Source of the DNA: Escherichia coli
Lineage (GTDB): Bacteria; Pseudomonadota; Gammaproteobacteria; Enterobacterales; Enterobacteriaceae
Direction: 5' to 3' (one strand)
Assembly: GCF_003018255.1 (NCBI RefSeq)
Contig: NZ_CP027440.1
Length of the DNA: 64,000 bases
The notes beneath the pieces are model-generated. The model had not been told where the DNA came from. It saw only the letters and a list, made by a program, of their open reading frames with translations, and did not search any database. Of the stretch, positions 4,316 to 51,368 are shown one piece after another. The first letter of the stretch is position 1, and each line of letters starts with the position of its first letter. A program made the position numbers and the translations under genes.

Positions 4316-4885
4316 ATGAAACTCGTGCACATGGCCAGTGGTTTAGCGGTTGCGATTGCGTTGGCGGCTTGCGCAGATAAAAGCGCGGATATTCAGACGC
4401 CAGCACCGGCTGCAAATACGTCTATTTCAGCAACACAACCTGCTATCCAGCAACCGAATGTCTCCGGTACCGTCTGGATCCGTCAGAAAGTCGCACTGCC
4501 GCCTGATGCTGTGCTGACCGTGACACTTTCTGACGCGTCGTTAGCCGATGCGCCGTCAAAAGTGCTGGCGCAGAAAGCGGTGCGTACCGAAGGTAAACAG
4601 TCACCATTCAGCTTTGTTCTGCCATTTAACCCGGCAGATGTTCAGCCGAACGCGCGTATTCTATTGAGTGCGGCGATTACCGTGAATGACAAACTGGTAT
4701 TTATTACCGATACCGTTCAGCCGGTGATCAATCAGGGCGGAACTAAAGCCGACCTGACATTGGTGCCGGTGCAGCAAACCGCCGTGCCGGTTCAGGCCAG
4801 CGGTGGCGCAACGGCTACCGTACCTTCGACTTCACCAACTCAGGTGAATCCGTCTTCGGCAGTTCCAGCTCCTACGCAATATTAA
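4316..4885 (+). CDS. ybaY: Lipoprotein YbaY
   Basis: 189-aa ORF with lipobox LAAC after signal peptide; recognised ybaY. Confidence 0.9.
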   Translation: MKLVHMASGLAVAIALAACADKSADIQTPAPAANTSISATQPAIQQPNVSGTVWIRQKVALPPDAVLTVTLSDASLADAPSKVLAQKAVRTEGKQSPFSFVLPFNPADVQPNARILLSAAITVNDKLVFITDTVQPVINQGGTKADLTLVPVQQTAVPVQASGGATATVPSTSPTQVNPSSAVPAPTQY

Positions 4886-4892
4886 GCGCAGT

Positions 4893-4918
4893 TAACCCTC
4901 TCCGCCCGGAGAGGGTTA
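4893..4918. terminator. Hairpin between convergent ybaY and atl
   Basis: Perfect 12-bp stem TAACCCTCTCCG/CGGAGAGGGTTA with 2-nt loop; overlaps atl stop codon. Confidence 0.6.
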
Positions 4919-5305
4919 GTAGTTCCAGCGATAACGCTGCAAGTCGATTTGCCCGCTTCCCGATACCATCACACCTTCTGCCAGTAATGCCTGTCGTTGA
5001 CGCTGTAAATCCGGTCCGGTTAGCGAAATTGTGCCGTGGCGATTAACCACCCGGTGCCAGGGCAAGGTGCTGCCTTCGGGGAGACGCTTTAACACACCGC
5101 CTACCTGGCGCGCGGCGCGCGGCGATCCCGCCAGTTTCGCCACATCACCGTAAGTGGTGACATAGCCTTCGGGAATAGCGGCGACGATTTGCCAGACGCG
5201 TTGGGGAAATGAATCTTCTTTTTCCATCTTTTCTTCCTGAGGTAATTTTTCAGCATAATCTGGAAAAACGCCCGAGTGAAGCCGCATTGCGCAAGAAACC
5301 AGCAT
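4916..5305 (-). CDS. atl: Alkyltransferase-like DNA-binding protein (MGMT-family, no active Cys)
   Basis: 129 aa from ATG 5305 (MLVSCAMRLHSG...); PWHRVV motif of the MGMT fold; recognised ybaZ/atl. Confidence 0.88.
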   Translation of the reverse strand: MLVSCAMRLHSGVFPDYAEKLPQEEKMEKEDSFPQRVWQIVAAIPEGYVTTYGDVAKLAGSPRAARQVGGVLKRLPEGSTLPWHRVVNRHGTISLTGPDLQRQRQALLAEGVMVSGSGQIDLQRYRWNY

Positions 5306-5381
5306 CTGGCACGCAATGGGTTGCAATTAGCCGGGGCAGCAGTGATAATGCGCCTGCGCGTTGGTTCTCAACGCTCTCAAT

Positions 5382-5495
5382 GGGGGCTCTGTTGGTTCTC
5401 CCGCAACGCTACTCTGTTTACCAGGTCAGGTCCGGAAGGAAGCAGCCAAGGCAGATGACGCGTGTGCCGGGATGTAGCTGGCAGGGCCCCCACCC
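5382..5495 (+). ncRNA. ffs: 4.5S RNA (SRP RNA)
   Basis: 114 nt GGGGGCTCTGTTGGTTCTCCCGCAACGC...GGCAGGGCCCCCACCC matches the E. coli 4.5S RNA sequence as I remember it, including GGAA tetraloop region CAGGTCCGGAAGGAAGCAGCC. Confidence 0.95.
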
Positions 5496-5605
5496 ATTTC
5501 TGCCTCCCCCCGTTTCGTCAAAAAATCCCAACATGGCTAAACTTTAACCACAACTGACGTCGCAAGAATTGTCTGGCTGCGCAGTACGCTTCGGAGGTAT
5601 GTCTG

Positions 5606-5959
5606 ATGAAGTATGTTGATGGTTTTGTTGTTGCCGTTCCTGCCGATAAAAAGGATGCCTATCGGGAAATGGCCGCTAAGGCCGCGCCATTATTTAAAGA
5701 GTTCGGTGCGCTTCGTATTGTCGAATGCTGGGCCAGCGATGTACCGGATGGTAAAGTGACCGATTTTCGTATGGCGGTGAAAGCGGAAGAGAATGAAGAG
5801 GTTGTCTTTAGCTGGATTGAATACCCTTCAAAAGAGGTCCGCGACGCTGCTAATCAAAAGATGATGTCGGACCCACGGATGAAAGAGTTCGGCGAGTCCA
5901 TGCCGTTTGACGGCAAGCGAATGATCTATGGTGGATTCGAATCAATCATCGACGAGTAG
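5606..5959 (+). CDS. ybaA: DUF1428-family protein YbaA
   Basis: 117-aa ORF with GGAGG SD 8 bp upstream; recognised ybaA. Confidence 0.9.
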   Translation: MKYVDGFVVAVPADKKDAYREMAAKAAPLFKEFGALRIVECWASDVPDGKVTDFRMAVKAEENEEVVFSWIEYPSKEVRDAANQKMMSDPRMKEFGESMPFDGKRMIYGGFESIIDE

Positions 5960-37674: not shown

Positions 37675-37731
37675 AATAATTTCCCTATAACGGATGCGCC
37701 ACCCTAAAGCAGTGCATCCGCAATGATGTAC

Positions 37732-40236
37732 TTATTCCTTCGGTTTAAACCGCAGCAACCGGTTGGCGTTACTCACTACGGTAATCGACGAGAGCGCCAT
37801 TGCCGCTCCGGCGACCACCGGGTTAAGCAGCGTACCGGTGAACGGCCACAAAATACCGGCGGCGACCGGAATACCAATGCTGTTGTAGATAAACGCACCG
37901 AGCAGGTTCTGCTTCATGTTGCGCAGCGTTGCGCGGGAAATTGCGAGCGCATCCGCAACACCCATCAGGCTATGGCGCATCAGGGTAATCGCCGCGGTTT
38001 CAATGGCAACATCACTGCCGCCACCCATCGCAATACCGACATCCGCCTGAGCCAGCGCTGGCGCATCGTTAATGCCGTCGCCCACCATTGCTACCTGACG
38101 TCCTTCACTTTGCAGACGTTTGATCGCTTCGGCTTTACCGTCTGGCAGCACGCCGGCTATCACCTCATCAATCCCTGCTTCTTTAGCGATCGCATTGGCG
38201 GTGGTCGGGTTATCCCCGGTTAGCATCACCAGGCGATATCCCGCTTTATGCAGGCGTTGCAGCGCCGCCACGCTATCACTACGCAACGGATCGCGTACAG
38301 CCAGCAGGGCTACCGCTTTCCCGTCAACCGCCAGCAGCACAGGCGTTGCCCCTTGCGATGCCTGAGCTGAAATATCTGCTTCAATTGCTTTGGTATCGAC
38401 CTGTTGGTCATTTAACAGCGCCTGATTACCCAGCAATACCGCATGACCTTCAGCTTCACCGCTCACACCCAGCCCGCGCAATGTGCGGAAACCGTTGACC
38501 TGCGGCAGCTGCATATCACCTGCTTTATCGAGGATCGCCCGTGCCAGCGGGTGGCTGGAACCTTGCTCCAGCGCCGCCGCCAGACGCAGCGCCTGCGCTT
38601 CATCAACATCAGCAAATGTTTTTACTGCGACAACCTGCGGCTTCCCTTCGGTCAGCGTCCCGGTTTTATCGAACACCACGGTGTCGAGCGTACTGGCGCG
38701 TTGCAGCGCGTCGGCGTCCCGCACCAGCACGCCAAACTCAGCCGCCCGCCCGACGCCCGAAATAATCGACATCGGCGTCGCCAGTCCCAGCGCACACGGA
38801 CAGGCGATAATCAGCACCGTGGTGGCAATCACCAGGGTATAAACAATTTGCGGTGCCGGGCCAAAGAAATACCAGATTGCCGCACTGACCAGCGCAATGA
38901 CTACCACCACCGGCACAAACACAGCGGAGATTTTATCCGCCAGTTGACCGATTTCTGGCTTGCTGCTCTGGGCCTGTCGCACCATGCGAATGATCCGTGA
39001 CAGCGTAGTATGGCTGCCGACCGCACTGGCGCGAAACAGCACACTGCCGTCCTGTACCACTGTCCCGGCATGGACGCTATCGCCTTCGCCTTTTTGCTGC
39101 GGGATTGGTTCGCCCGTCAGCATCGCTTCATCCAGCCACGCTTCGCCCTGGGTAATTTCACCATCTACCGGCACCCGATCACCCGTCGTCAGGCGCAGCA
39201 ACATACCTGGCTGAACATCTGCCAGCGGCACGTTTTTTTCACCTTCGTTGGTGACCAGGCGCGCCGTCGGTGGGGTTAAATCGAGTAATTTCTCCAGCGC
39301 CTTAGAAGAACGCTGACGTGCGCGCGCTTCCAGCATATGACCGAGATTAATCAGACCGATAATCATCGCACTGGCTTCATAGTAAAGATGTCGCGCTTCC
39401 ATCGGGAACCACTGCGGCCACAGGTTGACGCTCATTGAATAGAGCCACGCCACGCCCGTACCCAGCGCCACCAGCGTATCCATCGTCGCTGCACCGTTCA
39501 GCAGGCTTTTCCATGCGCTGCGGTAAAAATGGCCGCCGGCGAAAACCATTACCGCCAGGGTTATCAGGCCGATAACCAACCACAGGCTGCGGTTGTCGGC
39601 GGTGACCATCATGTTATCGCCGATCATCCCCCAGACCATCACCGGGATACCCACCGCCAGTGCGACAATCGCCTGCCAGCGGAAGCGCTTCATCGTAGCG
39701 ACGGCGGTTTCTTGCTGGCGCTCGCGGCGTTTAGCGTCATCTTCAATCGCTTCCGCGCCGTAGCCCGCTTTTTCCACCGCCTGCACTAAATCTTGTGGGG
39801 AGGCACTGCCCATCACCAGCGCAGTACGCTCCGCCAGGTTTACCCGTGCCTGAGTGACGCCCGGTACGCTTTGCAACGCATTTTGTACGCGGGTGACACA
39901 GCTGGCGCAGCTCATGCCGCTCAGCAGCAACTGCTGGCTGTCATCGTCATCGGCGGTCGCTGCCGGAAGCGCCTCAGAAACCGCTGTCAGTGCTTCCGAC
40001 GGGATTGATGACTCCGCCAGCGGTTTAGCCTTTGGGTGGCTTACAGATGCGTCATAACCCGCTTGTTTGATGGTTTCGATCAGCTGTTCTGCACTGGCAG
40101 TCCCGGTAACGTGCGCTTCAGTGACAGACACATCCGCCTGCTCAACATCCGGGCGCTGTTCGAGACTTTCTTTCACGCGTTTAACGCAGTGACCGCAGGA
40201 CAGGCCGTCCAGGGTCAGGTCGATAGTTTGTGACAT
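37732..40236 (-). CDS. copA: Cu(I)-exporting P1B-type ATPase CopA
   Basis: 834-aa ORF; two N-terminal CxxC metal-binding domains (GLSCGHC, GMSCASC), CPC motif, DKTGT phosphorylation site. Confidence 0.98.
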
Positions 40237-40276
40237 AAAACACTCCTTTTAAGACAGTTTTGACTGGCTGTGATAA

Positions 40277-41433: not shown

Positions 41434-42726
41434 ATGATGAACACGGAAGGTAATAACGATAACAAACCCCTCGGTCTATGGAACGTCGTTTCCATCGGTA
41501 TTGGGGCAATGGTGGGGGCGGGGATCTTCGCGCTGCTGGGGCAGGCTGCGTTGCTAATGGAAGCCTCGACCTGGGTCGCCTTTGCTTTTGGCGGTATTGT
41601 GGCGATGTTTTCCGGTTATGCCTATGCGCGCCTAGGGGCGAGCTATCCCAGCAATGGCGGTATTATCGACTTCTTTCGTCGCGGATTAGGCAACGGCGTC
41701 TTTTCGCTGGCACTCTCGTTATTGTACCTGTTGACGCTGGCGGTGAGCATCGCCATGGTCGCCCGTGCTTTTGGCGCTTATGCCGTGCAGTTTTTGCATG
41801 AAGGCAGTCAGGAGGAGCACCTTATATTGCTCTACGCGTTGGGGATCATTGCGGTGATGACGCTTTTCAACTCCTTAAGCAACCATGCGGTAGGGCGGCT
41901 GGAAGTGATCCTCGTCGGCATTAAAATGATGATCCTGTTATTGCTGATCATTGCCGGTGTCTGGTCGCTGCAACCGGCGCATATTTCCGTCTCTGCGCCC
42001 CCCAGCTCCGGTGCGTTCTTCTCCTGTATCGGGATAACCTTCCTTGCCTATGCGGGCTTTGGCATGATGGCGAACGCGGCGGATAAAGTGAAAGATCCGC
42101 AGGTCATTATGCCACGGGCGTTTCTGGTGGCGATTGGCGTTACCACGTTGCTTTATATCTCGCTGGCGCTGGTTTTGCTTAGCGATGTATCGGCATTAGA
42201 GTTAGAAAAATATGCCGATACCGCCGTAGCGCAGGCTGCTTCTCCGCTGCTCGGGCATGTGGGTTATGTGATCGTCGTCATCGGCGCTTTACTGGCGACG
42301 GCTTCAGCCATAAACGCGAACCTGTTCGCCGTGTTTAACATCATGGACAACATGGGCAGCGAACGCGAACTGCCGAAGCTAATGAATAAATCCCTGTGGC
42401 GGCAGAGTACCTGGGGCAACATCATTGTCGTGGTGCTGATTATGCTGATGACGGCGGCGCTGAATTTAGGCTCACTCGCCAGCGTTGCCAGCGCCACCTT
42501 TTTGATCTGCTATCTGGCGGTGTTTGTGGTGGCGATCCGCCTGCGTCATGATATTCACGCCTCGTTGCCGATTCTTATCGTTGGTACGTTGGTTATGTTG
42601 TTGGTGATCGTTGGCTTTATCTACAGTCTCTGGTCCCAGGGCAGCCGTGCGCTGATATGGATTATTGGCGCACTCTTACTCAGCCTTATTGTGGCAATGG
42701 TCATGAAGCGCAATAAAACTGTATAA
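41434..42726 (+). CDS. ybaT: APC-family amino-acid transporter YbaT
   Basis: 430-aa 12-TM ORF 2 bp after glsA. Confidence 0.92.
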   Translation: MMNTEGNNDNKPLGLWNVVSIGIGAMVGAGIFALLGQAALLMEASTWVAFAFGGIVAMFSGYAYARLGASYPSNGGIIDFFRRGLGNGVFSLALSLLYLLTLAVSIAMVARAFGAYAVQFLHEGSQEEHLILLYALGIIAVMTLFNSLSNHAVGRLEVILVGIKMMILLLLIIAGVWSLQPAHISVSAPPSSGAFFSCIGITFLAYAGFGMMANAADKVKDPQVIMPRAFLVAIGVTTLLYISLALVLLSDVSALELEKYADTAVAQAASPLLGHVGYVIVVIGALLATASAINANLFAVFNIMDNMGSERELPKLMNKSLWRQSTWGNIIVVVLIMLMTAALNLGSLASVASATFLICYLAVFVVAIRLRHDIHASLPILIVGTLVMLLVIVGFIYSLWSQGSRALIWIIGALLLSLIVAMVMKRNKTV

Positions 42727-42850
42727 CATCTCTCTGTGCGCAGTACCTCCTGTATTATTGTGGTGGCGGTCGATATTCGCACTGGCAAAAAAACGTGCTT
42801 GAATATCTGTTGAAACCCTTTAACAAAGCACAGGAGGCGTTGCGCGAACG

Positions 42851-43258
42851 ATGAACATTAGCGATGTAGCAAAAATTACCGGCCTGACCAGCAAAGCCAT
42901 TCGCTTCTATGAAGAGAAGGGGCTGGTGACGCCGCCGATGCGCAGCGAAAACGGTTATCGCACCTACACGCAGCAGCATCTCAACGAACTGACCTTACTG
43001 CGCCAGGCACGCCAGGTGGGCTTTAACCTGGAGGAGAGCGGCGAACTGGTGAATCTGTTTAACGATCCGCAGCGTCACAGCGCCGACGTCAAACGTCGTA
43101 CGCTGGAGAAAGTGGCGGAGATCGAACAGCATATCGAAGAACTGCAATCCATGCGTAACCAGCTGCTGGCGCTGGCGAATGCCTGCCCCGGTGATGACAG
43201 CGCCGACTGCCCGATTATCGAAAATCTCTCCGGCTGCTGTCATCATCGGGCGGGGTGA
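42851..43258 (+). CDS. cueR: MerR-family Cu(I)-responsive regulator CueR
   Basis: 135-aa ORF; [29 protein letters not shown]-terminal metal-binding Cys pair (CPGDDSADC). Confidence 0.97.
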
Positions 43259-44013
43259 TTAAGGCTTGCGAAAATAGTCGTCCATTATTTTCGTCAGCTC
43301 CGGACGTTCCCCGTCATCATTGATGGCAAAATCCAGAAAAAAAGCATCTGCTTGCGGCGTTCGGTTTTGCGCCATCAACCGGAAGGTGAGGGGGCCTGAC
43401 CAGGTTTCGGATGGGCTGATGTGCTTATCAGGGCCGAAACTCTCCCATGCGTTGGGCGGTAATGTTTTGCACGCGGTGAGTTTTGGTATGTGGTATTGCA
43501 GCTCTGTTTTGTGCAGACATTCCCCGCCAGGAAATACCAGGGTTTGTTGCTCATCATTAAAATGGGTTGCCGTGCTGAGCACCAGTGTTTTGAGCGGTCG
43601 CCCTTCCAGCGCGGCGGCAGTAGCCTTATGGTGTCCGTCGAGCAGAACGCAGAGATAGGAATCAGGGAGATACCAGGCCAGAGCGCGGGCGATTCCAGTT
43701 TTCGAGAGCAGACAAAAACCGGGCGGCTCCCTGTTCACCCTCCGCAAAACCGCTGTAGACAAATTCCGCACAGGTAGGGCAACCAGCCTCGGACCAGAAA
43801 CGTATTAACGGGACATCCTTGCCAGCAGAGCGAATGGATAAGACCGTGCGAGTGCGGATCGTAAATCACACATTGACGCAGAAATCCTTTCCCGGACTTC
43901 ACCGAAAAAATGACGCCCGCAGCGGTATTTTTCAGCAGACGTACTTCAGGTTTTCGAAAGGGGAAAAAGCATGGCCACTCCTTAGCCAAAATTTCAGTTC
44001 CCTGAACTGTGCC
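43259..44013 (-). pseudogene. Decayed gene of unknown function (ParB/Srx-like DGHHK motif); longest piece is a 170-aa GTG-initiated ORF 43259-43771
   Basis: Three overlapping minus-strand frames are open in turn (44013-43735, about 43872-43669, 43771-43259), none with a convincing ATG/SD; last frame contains YLCVLLDGHHKATAAALEG. Confidence 0.45.
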
Positions 44014-44060
44014 AGAAAATTACGCTGGTGACTATTGCTCTGGAAATGGAAACAGTGTCC

Positions 44061-44267
44061 TTACCCATTAATCCCCGTTTGTACCGAAAGAATATGTTGC
44101 AAACTTTCTACCATAATGCGCCCCGACTGAAATAAGCCTTCCTGGATTTCATTGTTAACATTCACAGCGTGAACCAGGGAGGCTAATAACACCACTTGCA
44201 AGAAGGCAAAAATAAACGCACCGATAATCATAATATGCGTCAGGGGGATTTTCCTTTGCTCCTTCAT
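44061..44267 (-). CDS. Small single-pass membrane protein, unknown function
   Basis: 68-aa ORF; start ATG overlaps upstream lipoprotein stop (ATGA, 44264-44267); one hydrophobic helix IMIIGAFIFAFLQVVLLASLVHAV. Confidence 0.6.
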   Translation of the reverse strand: MKEQRKIPLTHIMIIGAFIFAFLQVVLLASLVHAVNVNNEIQEGLFQSGRIMVESLQHILSVQTGING

Positions 44268-44686
44268 TTTAAATAACCCACAAACTGGCCTTCTTTCATT
44301 AAGGCGACTTTTCCTGTGTGATGATAAACAATGACATTATACAGACCCGACTGATAAACCGTGGCATCGGCATTATCTTCATCTATGGCACATAATGAAT
44401 CATTGAGATAAGCAAAATTCTTACTACTCATTCTAAAGGTCATGCCAAATCCTTTATAAATGGCTTTTTTTGCCGCCTGGGCATGTTGTGCGGCTTCTGC
44501 ATTTTTAAATGCCTGCGCTTCAGAAGCACTTAAAATAGCCGTCTGGCGCTGCTGTTCTGCGAGATAACAGGTGTCATGGCTGACGCCCTGCGCCTGACAA
44601 TCTGCGATGCGGGAAGCGGGTGAGCTACAGCCAGCCAGTAATATAACCGCCAGCAGGGAAAAGGATTTAATGGAGCTATTCATCAT
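44264..44686 (-). CDS. Lipoprotein, unknown function
   Basis: 140-aa ORF; signal peptide plus lipobox LLAGC|SS; AAGG SD; Ala/Gln-rich helix then beta-rich C-terminus. Confidence 0.75.
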   Translation of the reverse strand: MMNSSIKSFSLLAVILLAGCSSPASRIADCQAQGVSHDTCYLAEQQRQTAILSASEAQAFKNAEAAQHAQAAKKAIYKGFGMTFRMSSKNFAYLNDSLCAIDEDNADATVYQSGLYNVIVYHHTGKVALMKEGQFVGYLK

Positions 44687-44771
44687 TGTTAACCTTAAAT
44701 AATGTGCGAATTAATGAAGAGGTGAAACCCGGCAAGCTTCCTTGCTCTTATTTATATTGAGGATTGAAATA

Positions 44772-45788
44772 TTAGAACGAATATCCTACGCCGACACCTG
44801 CGCCGAAATCAGATTGCGTATCCGCAGAAATACCGGCTTTAAGTACCGTATGCGTTCCGGCATTAAAAGATGTTCCGACAGACACCGCAGATTCACCGTT
44901 GAAGGTTCCCGCTCCCGCTGACACCATCATCACGTCACCGGTTTTAACCTGTGGTTGTGAGGCGATAGCGATGGCAGATGCAGTTCCCGCATTGGCTTCT
45001 TTACGGTTGTCCTCAACTTCGTTTTTCAGCGAACTGTAATGGTTATTGAGCGTGTTAATTTGTTGGCTGTTATCTGCGACCCGTTTTTGCGTGTTGCTTA
45101 ACTGTTGCTGCGTTTGTGCGGAATCTTGTCTCAGACTTTCAATTTGCTCATGTGCCTGGACAGACTTCTGCGCCAGACTTTGCATTTGTTTATCGTATTG
45201 AGCCCTTTCTTTTTGCTGTTGTGCTGCCACATCGGTTGTCAGTGCATTCATTTTCTGCCCTTGTTCCGTGGTAGTGCGCTGATTAGCCTCATTTTGAGCC
45301 GCCAGTCTGGCATTAATCATCTCCTGATAATGCGCAGTATTTTGCGTATCTCCAGTCGCGGCGAGCGTTTTTTGTGTGGCTACGATCTGCGCCTGTTGCT
45401 CTGTAATTTGCGTTTGCTGGGCATCAGTTACCGCAGACTGTCGGGCGTTGATCATGCTCTGATAACGGGCAGGTGTCTGTGTATCACCTGTAGCGGCAAC
45501 GGTTTTTTGTCCTGCGTCAGGATCTGTCTGGACAGTGGGAGTCTGAGTGGTATCAGGTGTTTCAGAAGGGATGTAGTGATGTTCAGTCAAATAGGTATAC
45601 GCAGCGGGGCTGTTGTCTGTGCGTTCTAAAAAGCGGGTAATCTTCTGCTCAATCTCCGATTGCGACATGCCAGAGTTAATGGCTGAAAGCTCTGTTGCCG
45701 CCGCTTCAATGGTATCACCAGCTAAAACAACAGGGCTGGATGTTGCTGAAATTATGAGTGCCAGTAAAGCTACGTTTACAGTTTTCAT
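44772..45788 (-). CDS. Short 'headless' trimeric autotransporter adhesin-like protein (coiled-coil stalk + YadA-type anchor)
   Basis: 338-aa ORF; signal peptide MKTVNVALLALIISATSSPVVLA; Gln-rich heptad stalk; C-terminus ...VMMVSAGAGTFNGESAVSVGTSFNAGTHTVLKAGISADTQSDFGAGVGVGYSF = four beta-strands ending aromatic, typical YadA anchor. Confidence 0.8.
   Translation of the reverse strand: MKTVNVALLALIISATSSPVVLAGDTIEAAATELSAINSGMSQSEIEQKITRFLERTDNSPAAYTYLTEHHYIPSETPDTTQTPTVQTDPDAGQKTVAATGDTQTPARYQSMINARQSAVTDAQQTQITEQQAQIVATQKTLAATGDTQNTAHYQEMINARLAAQNEANQRTTTEQGQKMNALTTDVAAQQQKERAQYDKQMQSLAQKSVQAHEQIESLRQDSAQTQQQLSNTQKRVADNSQQINTLNNHYSSLKNEVEDNRKEANAGTASAIAIASQPQVKTGDVMMVSAGAGTFNGESAVSVGTSFNAGTHTVLKAGISADTQSDFGAGVGVGYSF
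45240..45509 (-). repeat. Diverged 135-bp (45-aa) tandem duplication inside the adhesin stalk
   Basis: QKTVAATGDTQTPARYQSMINARQSA... vs QKTLAATGDTQNTAHYQEMINARLAA...; DNA landmark GTATC at 45346 and 45481 (135 bp apart). Confidence 0.8.
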
Positions 45789-45821
45789 TCATTTTCTCTT
45801 GTTCAAAATAAGTCGCATTAA

Positions 45822-45838
45822 TGTTTCTATAAGAAACA
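45822..45838. promoter_or_regulatory. Inverted repeat TGTTTCT-ATA-AGAAACA (candidate operator)
   Basis: 7-bp arms; lies just downstream of predicted minus-strand promoter (-35 TTGCAA 45868-45873, -10 AATAAT 45845-45850) of the adhesin operon. Confidence 0.45.
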
Positions 45839-45947
45839 AATAATATTATTTTAAGAAATAAACTGCGTTGCAATTTAATCGAAATCTACGCCGCCATTTG
45901 TGTGATGTAAAGCGCATTTTTGTCTGGTGTAAGCGTAAACACCACCA

Positions 45948-45972
45948 ATAAGAAACAAAAAATGTTTCTTAT
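45948..45972. promoter_or_regulatory. Perfect inverted repeat ATAAGAAACA-AAAAA-TGTTTCTTAT (candidate operator)
   Basis: 10-bp perfect arms, same core heptamer as 45822-45838 but with opposite arm order. Confidence 0.5.
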
Positions 45973-46154
45973 ATAAATAAAATCGAAAATCATTTTGTGC
46001 TCTTTCAATGTAAAAAAGAGTAAAGACTTGTTTTGATAAGCGAAATAAATTCTGTTTCTGGACTAAACGTGAAGCGGTTCCTGATGTGTGCTAAAATGCG
46101 TTTCTTTGATAAATCTCAATTTTTAAGAGGTTTACGCCAGGCAGGAAAATTTAA

Positions 46155-46517
46155 ATGAATGAATTTGAGAAGATTTTTAATGAAATGAATCTGGACCGGG
46201 CATTGTTACCGATCCTTTTTCGTTCGAACCGGTCGACAGTGTGGAAGTATTTAAGCGGCGATAGTACGGCTCCTGCCTCTGCCATGTCGCTGATCATGCT
46301 GTTGCAGTTGATCCAGAAACGAAACCCCGATCTGTTAGCCGAATGGTTAACGCTTTCTGATTTCACCATTCCGCCAGAAGTTTACCTGGACCAACCTGAT
46401 TACTGGAAAGGGTGGGTGTATACCCAACACAAGGTCAATAAAAACGTCCTGGAATATCTAAAAAAACACTATCCGGATGAAGACCAAAAAAGTATGGGTA
46501 AAGGCCGGGAAGAGTAA
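46155..46517 (+). CDS. Small HTH protein (MqsA/XRE-like N-terminal domain + unknown C-terminal domain), candidate local regulator
   Basis: 120-aa ORF, AGGAAA SD; RSNRSTVWKYLSGDSTAPASAMSLIMLLQLIQKRNPDLLAEWL parallels the ...RYEKG...P....KLL..LDKHPELL pattern of MqsA-type HTH domains; extended -10 TGCTAAAAT at 46089-46097. Confidence 0.65.
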   Translation: MNEFEKIFNEMNLDRALLPILFRSNRSTVWKYLSGDSTAPASAMSLIMLLQLIQKRNPDLLAEWLTLSDFTIPPEVYLDQPDYWKGWVYTQHKVNKNVLEYLKKHYPDEDQKSMGKGREE

Positions 46518-46539
46518 TTTTGCCTCTACTCGGCTATAT

Positions 46540-46625
46540 GCCGGATGCGGCGCAAGCGCCTTATCTGGCCTACGATTCGGGCATATTTTGTAGGCATGAT
46601 AAGACGCGCCAGCGTCGCATCAGGC
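46540..46625. repeat. BIME: two inverted REP units
   Basis: GCCGGATGCGGCGCAAGCGCCTTATCTGGCCTAC (46540-46573) and GTAGGCATGATAAGACGCGCCAGCGTCGCATCAGGC (46590-46625); second unit overlaps the ybbJ stop. Confidence 0.88.
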
Positions 46626-47078
46626 GATGACCGCACGGATAATCAGCGTTATCCCTTCTATCGCAATCACCTCAACATGCGTACCTGCACTGAGATCCTC
46701 GCTGGCGCTGACAGGCCATGAACTGTCACCGACGCGCATATGACCACGCCCGTTGACCAGCGGAGATTCCAGAACAAAACGTCGGCCAATCAACTGCTGC
46801 CCGCGCTGGTTTAAATGACTGTCGCTGTGCTTTTGTTCGCGCACCCGCCGCGACAACCATTTCCACCACAGCCAGGCGGCGAGCAGCGTCAGGACGGCAA
46901 ACATTACCCCTTGCCACTCCCAACCCAGCGGCAGCAACCAGACCACCAGACCGGTAATCACCGCTGCCACGCCGCTCCACAACAGATAACCATTGCCGCC
47001 CAACATCTCGGCTGCCAGCAGCAAACCGCCGAGACTTAGCCAGAAAATATGTGGATGAACGACCATTAACTCCATCAT
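46620..47078 (-). CDS. ybbJ: NfeD-family membrane protein YbbJ
   Basis: 152-aa ORF, three TMs plus C-terminal OB-like domain; overlaps qmcA by 4 nt. Confidence 0.92.
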
Positions 47079-48815: not shown

Positions 48816-49581
48816 TATTACTAACGAATCATTAGCACTGGCATTGATGCTGGTGGTGGTGGCAATCTTAATTAGCCATAAAGAAAAACTGGCGCTGGAG
48901 AAAGATATTCTCTGGAGCGTCGGGCGCGCGATAATCCAGCTGATTATTGTCGGCTATGTGCTGAAGTATATTTTCAGCGTGGATGATGCCAGCCTGACAT
49001 TATTGATGGTGTTATTTATCTGCTTTAATGCGGCGTGGAACGCGCAAAAACGCAGTAAATATATTGCTAAAGCTTTTATCTCATCGTTTATTGCCATTAC
49101 GGTCGGGGCGGGAATTACCCTGGCGGTGCTGATTCTCTCAGGGTCGATTGAATTTATCCCGATGCAGGTGATCCCTATCGCCGGGATGATAGCCGGCAAC
49201 GCCATGGTAGCGGTGGGGTTGTGTTACAACAATTTAGGGCAACGGGTCATTAGCGAACAGCAACAGATTCAGGAGAAACTGAGTCTTGGCGCGACGCCGA
49301 AACAGGCTTCAGCGATATTGATTCGCGACAGTATTCGCGCGGCTTTAATTCCGACGGTCGATTCAGCAAAAACGGTAGGCTTAGTGAGTTTACCAGGAAT
49401 GATGTCCGGGCTGATATTTGCCGGGATTGATCCGGTGAAGGCGATTAAATATCAGATTATGGTGACCTTTATGCTGCTCTCAACCGCCAGCTTGTCGACC
49501 ATTATTGCCTGCTATTTAACCTATCGTAAGTTTTACAATTCGCGCCACCAATTGGTGGTGACGCAATTGAAGAAGAAATGA
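48802..49581 (+). CDS. fetB: ABC permease FetB
   Basis: 259 aa from ATG 48802 (MNSHNITNESLALALML), overlaps fetA by 14 nt. Confidence 0.92.
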   Translation: MNSHNITNESLALALMLVVVAILISHKEKLALEKDILWSVGRAIIQLIIVGYVLKYIFSVDDASLTLLMVLFICFNAAWNAQKRSKYIAKAFISSFIAITVGAGITLAVLILSGSIEFIPMQVIPIAGMIAGNAMVAVGLCYNNLGQRVISEQQQIQEKLSLGATPKQASAILIRDSIRAALIPTVDSAKTVGLVSLPGMMSGLIFAGIDPVKAIKYQIMVTFMLLSTASLSTIIACYLTYRKFYNSRHQLVVTQLKKK

Positions 49582-49582
49582 T

Positions 49583-49613
49583 GCGATGCCGGACGCGCAG
49601 CATCGCATCCGGC
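49583..49613. repeat. REP-like hairpin between fetB and cnoX
   Basis: GATGCGATGCCGGACGCGCAGCATCGCATCCGGC imperfect palindrome. Confidence 0.7.
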
Positions 49614-49643
49614 GTTGTGGTTCATGTGCCGATCAACGGAAAC

Positions 49644-50540
<897 letters not shown>

Positions 50541-50558
50541 TTAAGCGCGCGCTTCAAC

Positions 50559-51368
50559 TCACCCCTGCAATATTTTGTCCATCACGCGCCCCGGCAGCAG
50601 GCGCTTAAGCACCATTACCGCCCAGGTCACCAGCGTTACCGGATAGCGCATCTTCGGCTTCTCGCTAATAAAAGCATGGCGTACTTTGTCCACCACCGCT
50701 TCCGGTCCCAACGTAAAGCGGGCGGCGATGCCGGGATTTTCGACTGGTTTATCACTTTGCGTCTGGTTGACGTTGTCGGTGAAGCGAGTACGAATGGGAC
50801 CGGGTTCGATCAGGCTGACTTTAATTCCACAGTGGCGTAGCTCCATGCGCAGCGCGTCTGACCACGCCTCCAGCGCATATTTACTGGCCGCGTAAGCACC
50901 ACGACCCGGCGTGGAGATTAATCCCATCACCGATGAGGTCATCACAATACGCCCTTCACCGTGCGGTAACATCGCGGGTAACAGGCGCATGGTGAGCTGG
51001 TGTGCGCCGAAAAAGTTGGCGGAAAACTGCTGTTCCATCTGCGCACGGCTGATGGTGGAAAGGGGGCCATACATGCCGAATCCGGCATTGTTAAAGATCC
51101 CATACAGACAATTATCGGTCAGGGCGATCACCTCGTTGGCTGCGCGATCAACACTTTCTGGTGAATCCAGATCGATCAACACGCCGGTAAATCCCATGCT
51201 GTTCATGCGCTCAACATCATCCGGTTTCCGGCAACCTGCCAGCACATGAAAACCCTGGCGTTTTAATTCGAGCGCGCTTTCCAGGCCAATTCCACTGGAA
51301 CATCCGGTAATTAAGACCGATTTTTGCATAACTTTACCTGTCAGGATCTCCGTTGCTTTATGAGTCAT
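50559..51368 (-). CDS. ybbO: Short-chain dehydrogenase/reductase YbbO
   Basis: 269-aa ORF; TGCSSGIG cofactor motif, YAASK catalytic motif. Confidence 0.93.
   Translation of the reverse strand: MTHKATEILTGKVMQKSVLITGCSSGIGLESALELKRQGFHVLAGCRKPDDVERMNSMGFTGVLIDLDSPESVDRAANEVIALTDNCLYGIFNNAGFGMYGPLSTISRAQMEQQFSANFFGAHQLTMRLLPAMLPHGEGRIVMTSSVMGLISTPGRGAYAASKYALEAWSDALRMELRHCGIKVSLIEPGPIRTRFTDNVNQTQSDKPVENPGIAARFTLGPEAVVDKVRHAFISEKPKMRYPVTLVTWAVMVLKRLLPGRVMDKILQG

Follow-up and report, generated by a model that had tools for sequence, protein, structure and literature searches.

O-island 29 (OI-29) was reportedly catalogued by Perna and colleagues in 2001, in the first O157:H7 genome comparison. 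TpgA of Acinetobacter is a BamE/OmpA-like helper of a trimeric autotransporter adhesin (TAA). A 2026 preprint survey gives SadB and TpgA as the only described TAA helpers. The island itself was described by Yang et al. 2018 (PMC5826968) as 2,643 bp in length with the genes z0638, z0639 (gmrA) and z0640. Here we analyze positions 43,259 to 46,625 of a 64,000-nucleotide stretch of Escherichia coli (contig NZ_CP027440.1, assembly GCF_003018255.1; the whole stretch is referred to as the window), where OI-29 and the relic of a further gene lie between the core genes cueR and ybbJ.

Our analyses indicate that this DNA probably consists of two modules that have long resided in the cueR-ybbJ gap of Escherichia and vary independently, neither having arrived recently, and that OI-29 is probably an envelope cassette. 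The elements of the locus are as follows.

42851-43258, plus strand: cueR, left flank and core gene (ORF; annotated as cueR in a 100%-identical genome), with its TGA stop at 43256-58
43259-43973, minus strand: module 1, relic of a 407-aa gene, delimited by alignment to the intact gene and marked 'frameshifted' by the Prokaryotic Genome Annotation Pipeline (PGAP)
about 44000-46531: module 2, OI-29, four genes
44061-44267, minus strand: 68-aa open reading frame (ORF), last gene of the operon
44264-44686, minus strand: z0638, predicted 140-aa lipoprotein
44772-45788, minus strand: z0639 ('gmrA'), 338-aa putative trimeric autotransporter
45789-46154, no strand: divergent control region, 366 bp, 30.6% GC
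46155-46517, plus strand: z0640, 120 aa, divergent from the operon
46533-46570 and 46593-46630: two inverted repetitive extragenic palindromic (REP) units forming a bacterial interspersed mosaic element (BIME), the second unit including the ybbJ stop
46620-47078, minus strand: ybbJ, right flank and core gene, with its stop at 46620-22

Two modules between cueR and ybbJ

The window was aligned pairwise to strain S5, O157 and K-12-type genomes, and GC content and GC content at third codon positions (GC3) were computed for each gene. In K-12-type genomes the cueR stop lies directly against the ybbJ stop; homology to the window ends at 43263 and restarts at 46629, and the extra DNA therefore amounts to 3,365 bp (43264-46628). 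This DNA is a composite of two independently varying modules and not one insert, since the breakpoints differ between comparator genomes. Strain S5 matches the window over 42700-43999 and then from 46532 onward, so that it holds module 1 only, as does Nissle 1917, while O157 matches up to 43258 and then over 44070-46520 and holds module 2 only. A search of 5,426 complete E. coli genomes with the module queries found module 1 in 965, OI-29 in 1,416, either one in 2,217 and both contiguously in 163. Four states of the locus can thus be distinguished, with neither module in approximately 59% of the genomes, OI-29 only in 23%, module 1 only in 15% and both in 3%, the last and rarest being that of the window.

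Module 2 can be identified as the already named O-island 29, and the island itself is thus already known. It occupies the cueR-ybbJ site and contains z0638, z0639 and z0640; its identity to O157 is 96.3% over 2,451 bp with the same flanks, and the annotated O157 locus reads cueR, four ORFs and ybbJ in the gene order and orientation of the window. The published primer arms bound the individual ORFs (PMC5826968). The deletion arms for z0638 map to 44226-44263 and 44687-44725, those for gmrA to 44734-44771 and 45789-45827, and one arm for z0640 maps to 46117-46154, against the start codon of 46155-46517. Accordingly, z0638 corresponds to the 140-aa ORF, gmrA to the 338-aa ORF and z0640 to the 120-aa ORF. 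The 68-aa ORF is not one of the three OI-29 genes named in that study.

Module 1 is the remnant of a gene that in its intact form has 1,224 nt and encodes 407 aa (WP_000492611, Nissle 1917); it is also intact in O145 RM8995 at the same position. Relative to the intact gene, the alignment places a deletion of approximately 264 bp between imperfect direct repeats, a second deletion of 225 bp at the 43395/43396 junction and, close to the 5' end, two insertions of 1 nt each. Homologs were found in E. albertii (90% aa identity), Salmonella (55%, at a different locus), Superficieibacter (48%) and Clostridium (approximately 33%). Both E. albertii and Superficieibacter electus have the intact gene in the ybbJ-cueR gap, arranged stop-to-stop with cueR. 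Because of this synteny and the core-like GC of the pseudogene (52.9%), module 1 reads as an old syntenic gene in decay and not as imported DNA.

The 407-aa family contains an invariant DGHHK motif and a conserved CPTC, and a homolog is labelled 'ParB-like nuclease domain protein' in one source. We take the DGHHK motif to recall the DGHHR-type motif of ParB/Srx proteins. The protein had no Pfam match (29 family members tried) and no PADLOC match, and a family profile search of PDB sequences returned no match. The idea of a defence system was dropped, as PADLOC gave no matches for the 407-aa gene, z0640, z0638 or the 68-aa ORF. In comparator locus L005 the intact gene spans 4490-5713. The Salmonella homolog (L009, 7001-8239) adjoins an Hsp70-like gene and DjlB/DUF1266 genes and not cueR, and the homologs with approximately 33% identity occur in Clostridium botulinum and C. 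sporogenes.

The layout agrees closely with that proposed in the initial annotation, which had been made from the sequence of the window. In K-12-type genomes cueR and ybbJ are the convergent neighbours that it described, and its five extra ORFs were all located, including the decayed minus-strand gene whose TTA (43259-61) follows the cueR TGA with zero spacer and the adhesin-like three-gene minus-strand operon, which comprises a YadA-anchor ORF, a lipoprotein gene and the 68-aa ORF. A complete genome that is 100% identical to the window, that of strain JNE23-011, carries an annotation that agrees and marks the first gene as frameshifted. The BIME does reach over the ybbJ stop through its second REP unit. 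The AT-richness proposed for 44061-46517 is seen in the composition of the four OI-29 genes (42-49% GC, GC3 0.41-0.53) against cueR, ybbJ, qmcA and ybaT (53-57%, GC3 0.62-0.68). The accessory status was borne out by the share of E. coli genomes, K-12 included, with none of the stretch. The small divergent gene, a 120-aa plus-strand ORF, is likewise present, but the helix-turn-helix (HTH) label given to it leans on sub-threshold matches (see below).

Where the initial annotation and our results part is in its reading of the DNA as a single insert wedged into a K-12-like site. Taken to its full extent, that reading would have one 3.3-kb block gained horizontally as a unit, into a K-12-like junction, in the recent ancestry of the strain. 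The AT-rich OI-29 genes, the lack of the stretch from approximately 59% of E. coli, the empty junction in most other genera and the related cassettes at other sites in Pseudocitrobacter and Rahnella, which show that the cassette moved at some time, would all fit such an event. The modules are nevertheless found separately in many genomes, the pseudogene has core-like GC and an intact syntenic form in E. albertii and Superficieibacter, OI-29 occupies the same site in three other Escherichia species with relics in two more, and the island is as divergent as its flanks. The marks of an integrase-mediated genomic island were not found either, as the initial annotation had reported: every ORF of the extra DNA is accounted for and none is integrase-sized or integrase-like, no tRNA lies at 38-52 kb of the window, and no flanking direct repeats were found around the extra DNA. 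No copy of OI-29 was found on a plasmid, the two E. coli 'plasmid' matches being 4.9-Mb records, and a plasmid origin was rejected for want of a close plasmid copy. The separate distribution of the modules and the synteny in other species largely refute the single-block view, and we consider it highly improbable.

In keeping with a BIME, the genome search query matched at a median of 8 places per genome, and the Rfam matches of the BIME, to the REP-derived naRNA4, were sub-threshold only. The REP/BIME units that separate ybbJ from z0640 (or from the z0640 relic) range from a single pair, as in the window and O145, up to at least four; such REP-variable stretches lie at L011 12866-13280, L016 9950-10110 and L002 (O157) 4458-4641, and in L016 the REPs touch the deletion scar directly. 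In some genomes OI-29 contains insertion sequence (IS) elements, namely IS1203 in an O157-like strain and IS1 in strain PKF4, where 9% of the island is left. These elements are a further sign of ongoing decay.

History of the gap across Escherichia and other genera

A CueR scan of species-representative genomes gave 80 loci, which were then searched with all the proteins of the locus. The contents of the gap in other Escherichia lineages were as follows.

E. ruysiae, cueR-ybbJ site: full OI-29 gene set
E. whittamii, cueR-ybbJ site: full OI-29 gene set and intact 407-aa gene
Escherichia sp. E1V33, cueR-ybbJ site: full OI-29 gene set and intact 407-aa gene
Escherichia sp. MOD1-EC7003: 407-aa gene, decayed 68-aa ORF, last approximately 30 nt of z0638, followed by REPs
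Divergent lineage labelled E. coli (L017): only the final 56 nt of z0640, beside cueR
E. albertii: 407-aa gene only

These data indicate that both modules pre-date E. coli and were lost repeatedly by different deletions. The 407-aa gene would have stood stop-to-stop with cueR since before the split of E. coli and E. albertii and is decayed in the window. Deletions would create the four states of the locus, with both modules, either or neither, and homologous recombination in the conserved flanks may carry these states between lineages. The route of acquisition, left unclear in the initial annotation, is best explained by such old residence with repeated deletion and flank exchange, which would account for the lack of an integrase, tRNA or direct repeat. 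The identity of the window to O157 is consistent with such a history, being similar in the island (96.3%) and in its flanks (94.6-95.4%). Yang et al. inferred four independent acquisitions of OI-29 (PMC5826968), with which the account of old residence conflicts.

Several observations weigh against a loss of the modules from the K-12 lineage. In most other genera (Salmonella, Enterobacter, Klebsiella and others) cueR and ybbJ abut as in K-12, and Salmonella diarizonae has the same TGATTAA junction. The last 28 nt of ybbJ are identical between the window and the K-12 allele at 16 of 28 positions (57%, counted manually). From this value and the abutting state elsewhere, the K-12 junction is not a simple deletion product of the window haplotype and may be an old alternative allele. 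Taken further, the empty junction of K-12 would be the retained ancestral enterobacterial state and the filled haplotypes old alternative alleles that persisted or introgressed, with no loss in K-12. The K-12 3' end of ybbJ, which deletion alone cannot derive from the window haplotype, would then be accounted for, as would the climb of divergence toward the junction, where the identity of the window to the K-12 type falls from 94-100% to 91.5% (final 200 bp of cueR) and 85% (final 100 bp of ybbJ). Identical deletion junctions across species point the same way: where the 407-aa gene was lost, O157, another E. coli genome and E. ruysiae have the junction TGA-AAA-TCAGTnAATCCCC in common. This shared junction also speaks for the age of the segment. 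On the other hand, each sampled Escherichia lineage outside E. coli has at least a relic of a module. We also presume that the OI-29-bearing E. coli phylogroups listed by Yang et al. are early-branching ones. With such relics in all the sampled lineages and these phylogroups, parsimony favours loss where the segment is missing, and an ancestrally empty K-12 junction appears rather unlikely, though it deserves to be taken seriously. Loss from an old resident state, with exchange of haplotypes through the flanks, is the account that we prefer.

The gap also holds DNA of another kind. A different filler of approximately 2.9 kb, encoding a 720-aa protein without Pfam match and a DUF3142 protein, occupies it in a Citrobacter sp. 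(L024, 8408-11256) and in about 25 other loci of Citrobacter, Kosakonia, Leclercia and Enterobacter. With this unrelated filler in the same gap, the cueR-ybbJ junction is an accessory-gene hot spot across Enterobacteriaceae. On the other side of cueR, the segment 42757-42854, which overlaps the cueR start and is marked 'frameshifted; incomplete' by PGAP, is a relic consisting of the final approximately 100 bp of a gene for a type I secretion adaptor of the HlyD family. The ybaT-cueR gap of O157 and O145 holds the intact adaptor gene together with genes for a type I secretion system ATPase and a giant BapA/SiiE-like adhesin. Thus cueR has decayed or variable adhesin loci on both sides.

Two comparator records call for a remark. 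An apparent 75-80% divergence of copA and fetB-cnoX-ybbO from 'K-12' was set aside as a peculiarity of the comparator, E. coli ECDA1023 (L014, the GTDB representative), because the copA of the window is 95-99% identical to that of nearly all E. coli. ECDA1023 compares to the window at about 61-85%, mostly 70-80%, over 37694-40258 and 49220-51019, possibly through imported segments in that genome. The record titled Enterobacter hormaechei B17-3 (L015) has a junction identical to the K-12 type over 130 nt, a CueR 98% identical to that of the window and a QmcA 100% identical to that of E. coli; it is probably mislabelled or chimeric.

z0639 and the published role of GmrA

The C-terminal part of z0639 matched the YadA anchor family PF03895 at residues 279-338 with 45 bits (cut-off 22.7, E 1.1e-11), and residues 243-336 aligned by phmmer to the solved anchors of AtaA, Hia and YadA (E 1.5e-6 to 0.05). 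The N-terminus has the features of a Sec signal as judged by eye, namely a basic residue, a hydrophobic core and a VLA/GD site (MKTVNVALLALIISATSSPVVLAGD), and the signal peptide could be read directly from the sequence as MKTVNVALLALIISATSSPVVLA followed by GD. After the signal peptide comes a short N-terminal domain, followed by a stalk rich in Q, A and T, whose coding sequence has a 135-nt internal repeat, and by a YadA-type anchor that ends in ...GVGYSF. No YadA head or stalk Pfam domain was found in the passenger at E <= 1, and for this reason we call z0639 headless. Its alleles have 338, 349 and 436 aa, and their passengers are approximately 50% identical, while in the same allele comparisons the neighbouring genes are 87-100% identical (98-100% in the comparison with O145). 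A passenger that varies in this manner is a pattern typical of an exposed surface protein, and display of z0639 at the cell surface appears likely.

The published work points in a different direction. Deletion mutants of OI-29 and of gmrA were less motile, had fewer flagella and showed lower fliC and motA expression, and these defects were complemented; purified GmrA shifted the fliA promoter in electrophoretic mobility shift assays (EMSA) and was found at that promoter by chromatin immunoprecipitation with quantitative PCR (ChIP-qPCR); the motility phenotype was the same in eight strains, and a DNA-binding domain was predicted using CDD (PMC5826968). A 2024 review repeats these statements, and in the literature searched GmrA, autotransporters and O157 are named together only in two reviews, at least one of which still gives GmrA a DNA-binding regulatory role. 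As encoded by the cloning primers, gmrA has the start MKTVNVAL... and the end ...GVGYSF (PMC5826968), from which the published 'GmrA' is the YadA-anchor protein including its signal peptide. By its sequence, then, 'GmrA' is an outer-membrane adhesin-type protein, in conflict with its label in the literature.

Two results of the same study speak against our assignment: the OI-29 deletion mutant adheres normally to HeLa and Caco-2 cells, and z0639 is given a cytoplasmic DNA-binding role (PMC5826968). If z0639 were a cytoplasmic activator acting at the fliA promoter, and the role of the island the control of flagella and motility, the loss of motility, flagella, fliC and motA with its complementation, the EMSA and ChIP-qPCR signals, the agreement of the eight strains and the missing adherence defect would all be explained. 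Against this, the ORF that was deleted, cloned and tagged carries a signal peptide and a YadA outer-membrane anchor. The sole reproducible DNA-binding match, to PF12329 (TMF_DNA_bd), has an E of 0.17 and 12 bits against a cut-off of 35, and it falls in the coiled-coil stalk amid coiled-coil noise such as SMC and ATG16; this match may be the source of the published CDD domain call. With its identity of approximately 50%, the passenger varies as exposed antigens typically do and as a site-specific regulator usually does not, and the complementing fragment also includes most of the control region with its GTTTCT copies (see below). These features fit poorly with a mechanism that acts directly in the cytoplasm, and we regard such a mechanism as unlikely. 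The effect on motility may well be real and yet arise indirectly, for instance through an envelope stress response.

The cassette, its candidate regulator and comparison with described systems

The genes of OI-29 recur together outside Escherichia. In Pseudocitrobacter a z0640 homolog is divergent from genes for a YadA-anchor protein, a lipoprotein and a small ORF in the qmcA-fetA gap, one gap away, and the same arrangement was found in Rahnella at an unrelated site and in a metagenomic contig. In Serratia silvae the regulator, lipoprotein and small ORF lie upstream of qmcA-ybbJ-cueR, with no TAA. The control region is 365-370 bp long in eight homologous loci and 379 bp in a ninth (Symbiopectobacterium), and a block at 45887-45915, TACGCC...TGTGATGTAAAGC, is invariant among the homologous loci. 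The control region of the window contains six copies of GTTTCT/AGAAAC (45823-28, 45832-37, 45951-56, 45964-69, 46054-59 and 46100-05) where 0.24 would be expected, a number reached in none of 5,000 shuffles. Several of the copies are at positions kept between genera, including the palindrome AAGAAAC-N7-GTTTCTT. Promoter and terminator candidates in a scan of the control region were at chance level. The cassette and its 366-bp control region are thus conserved as a unit across genera of Enterobacterales, and the repeats suggest an operator array, most economically for z0640.

The z0640 family is very small (23 representatives among 1.84 billion proteins), and in other genera its members are always divergent from a TAA or lipoprotein operon. 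An all-helical structure was predicted, with an AlphaFold2 pLDDT of 60. HTH matches were sub-threshold: the HTH part of MqsA at E 0.08 over N-terminal residues of about 6-63, and, for distant relatives, HTH_3, HTH_26, HTH_23 and Xre-like-HTH at E 0.02-0.09, again in this part of the protein. Foldseek against the PDB returned nothing below E = 4, a result that is not informative at this model confidence. That no HTH family rises above threshold and the model is of low confidence counts against a regulatory assignment. We propose z0640 as the likely regulator of the cassette and as a candidate small HTH protein.

The z0638 product has a lipobox, LLAGC, in which Ser occupies +2. Two conserved Cys residues lie in its N-terminal helical hairpin, and its C-terminal part is a beta domain of 8 strands. 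This domain would be a candidate for the small 8-stranded beta-barrel of MliC/PliC-type lipoproteins, a family that also has conserved loop motifs. The z0638 stop overlaps the start of the 68-aa ORF at ATGA. With one hydrophobic helix, the 68-aa product is read as a small single-pass inner-membrane protein, and in Pseudocitrobacter, Rahnella and Serratia silvae a conserved small ORF likewise follows the lipoprotein gene. Both products may be helpers of z0639. Neither sequence nor fold similarity to SadB was found for z0638, and the idea of a SadB-like helper was not supported for this reason; z0638 resembles neither of the known TAA helpers, SadB and TpgA. The preprint survey of such helpers required a YadA head, so a headless z0639 would have been excluded from it. 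A helper role for z0638 is made uncertain by Serratia silvae and apparently Symbiopectobacterium, where the lipoprotein, the small protein and the regulator are kept without a full-length TAA. These cases run counter to the proposed roles, and z0638 may not be a TAA helper at all.

We propose that the three-gene operon would encode a short headless TAA, z0639, exported by Sec and held by a YadA-type barrel in the outer membrane, from which a variable coiled-coil stalk would be displayed. The operon would also supply the lipoprotein z0638 and the 68-aa single-pass membrane protein, and z0640 may act on the GTTTCT array in the AT-rich 366-bp intergenic region. A bolder version is possible and is held only tentatively: that GmrA is a surface-anchored headless TAA in a four-gene cassette, that z0640 is the true regulator, acting via GTTTCT operators, that the motility effect is indirect and mediated by the envelope, and that z0638, with its small beta-barrel, and the 68-aa protein together make up a TAA-associated factor of a third type, alongside SadB and TpgA.

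As a genome feature OI-29 is ordinary, having been catalogued already, with one gene studied experimentally. Its interest lies in how an island defined against K-12 can mislead, since OI-29 appears to be an old and decaying resident of the genus that exists in four states. The literature on GmrA conflicts with the sequence, and reviews keep the protein as a DNA-binding regulator. The cassette, kept across genera with a repeated motif in its control region, is a defined and testable unit.

Compared with known systems, z0639 shares with the TAAs (type Vc, such as YadA, Hia and AtaA, and the enterobacterial UpaG, EhaG and SadA) the anchor, the signal peptide, an aromatic C-terminal residue and a stalk that is repetitive, coiled-coil-like and variable in length. 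Unlike those proteins, it has only 338 aa and no YadA head or stalk Pfam domains. The published data also set it apart from TAA adhesins, with no defect in adherence to HeLa or Caco-2 cells and a regulatory role instead (PMC5826968). The z0638 gene recalls that of SadB, an inner-membrane lipoprotein of Salmonella, in being a lipoprotein gene co-transcribed with a TAA gene, as in sadB/sadA. With the small HTH regulators of the Xre/Cro type, z0640 shares its small size, all-helical prediction and divergent arrangement, and here too motif repeats and a palindrome lie in the shared control region; it differs in that no HTH family reaches threshold and its own family is tiny. The closest counterpart of the whole locus is OI-29 of O157:H7 EDL933, which lies at the same site and has the four ORFs in identical order and orientation. 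There the 407-aa gene is gone, the cueR stop being followed by AAA and then by the stop of the 68-aa ORF, and additional REP units stand ahead of ybbJ, whereas in the window the 407-aa gene persists in decayed form beside OI-29, a state found in approximately 3% of complete genomes.

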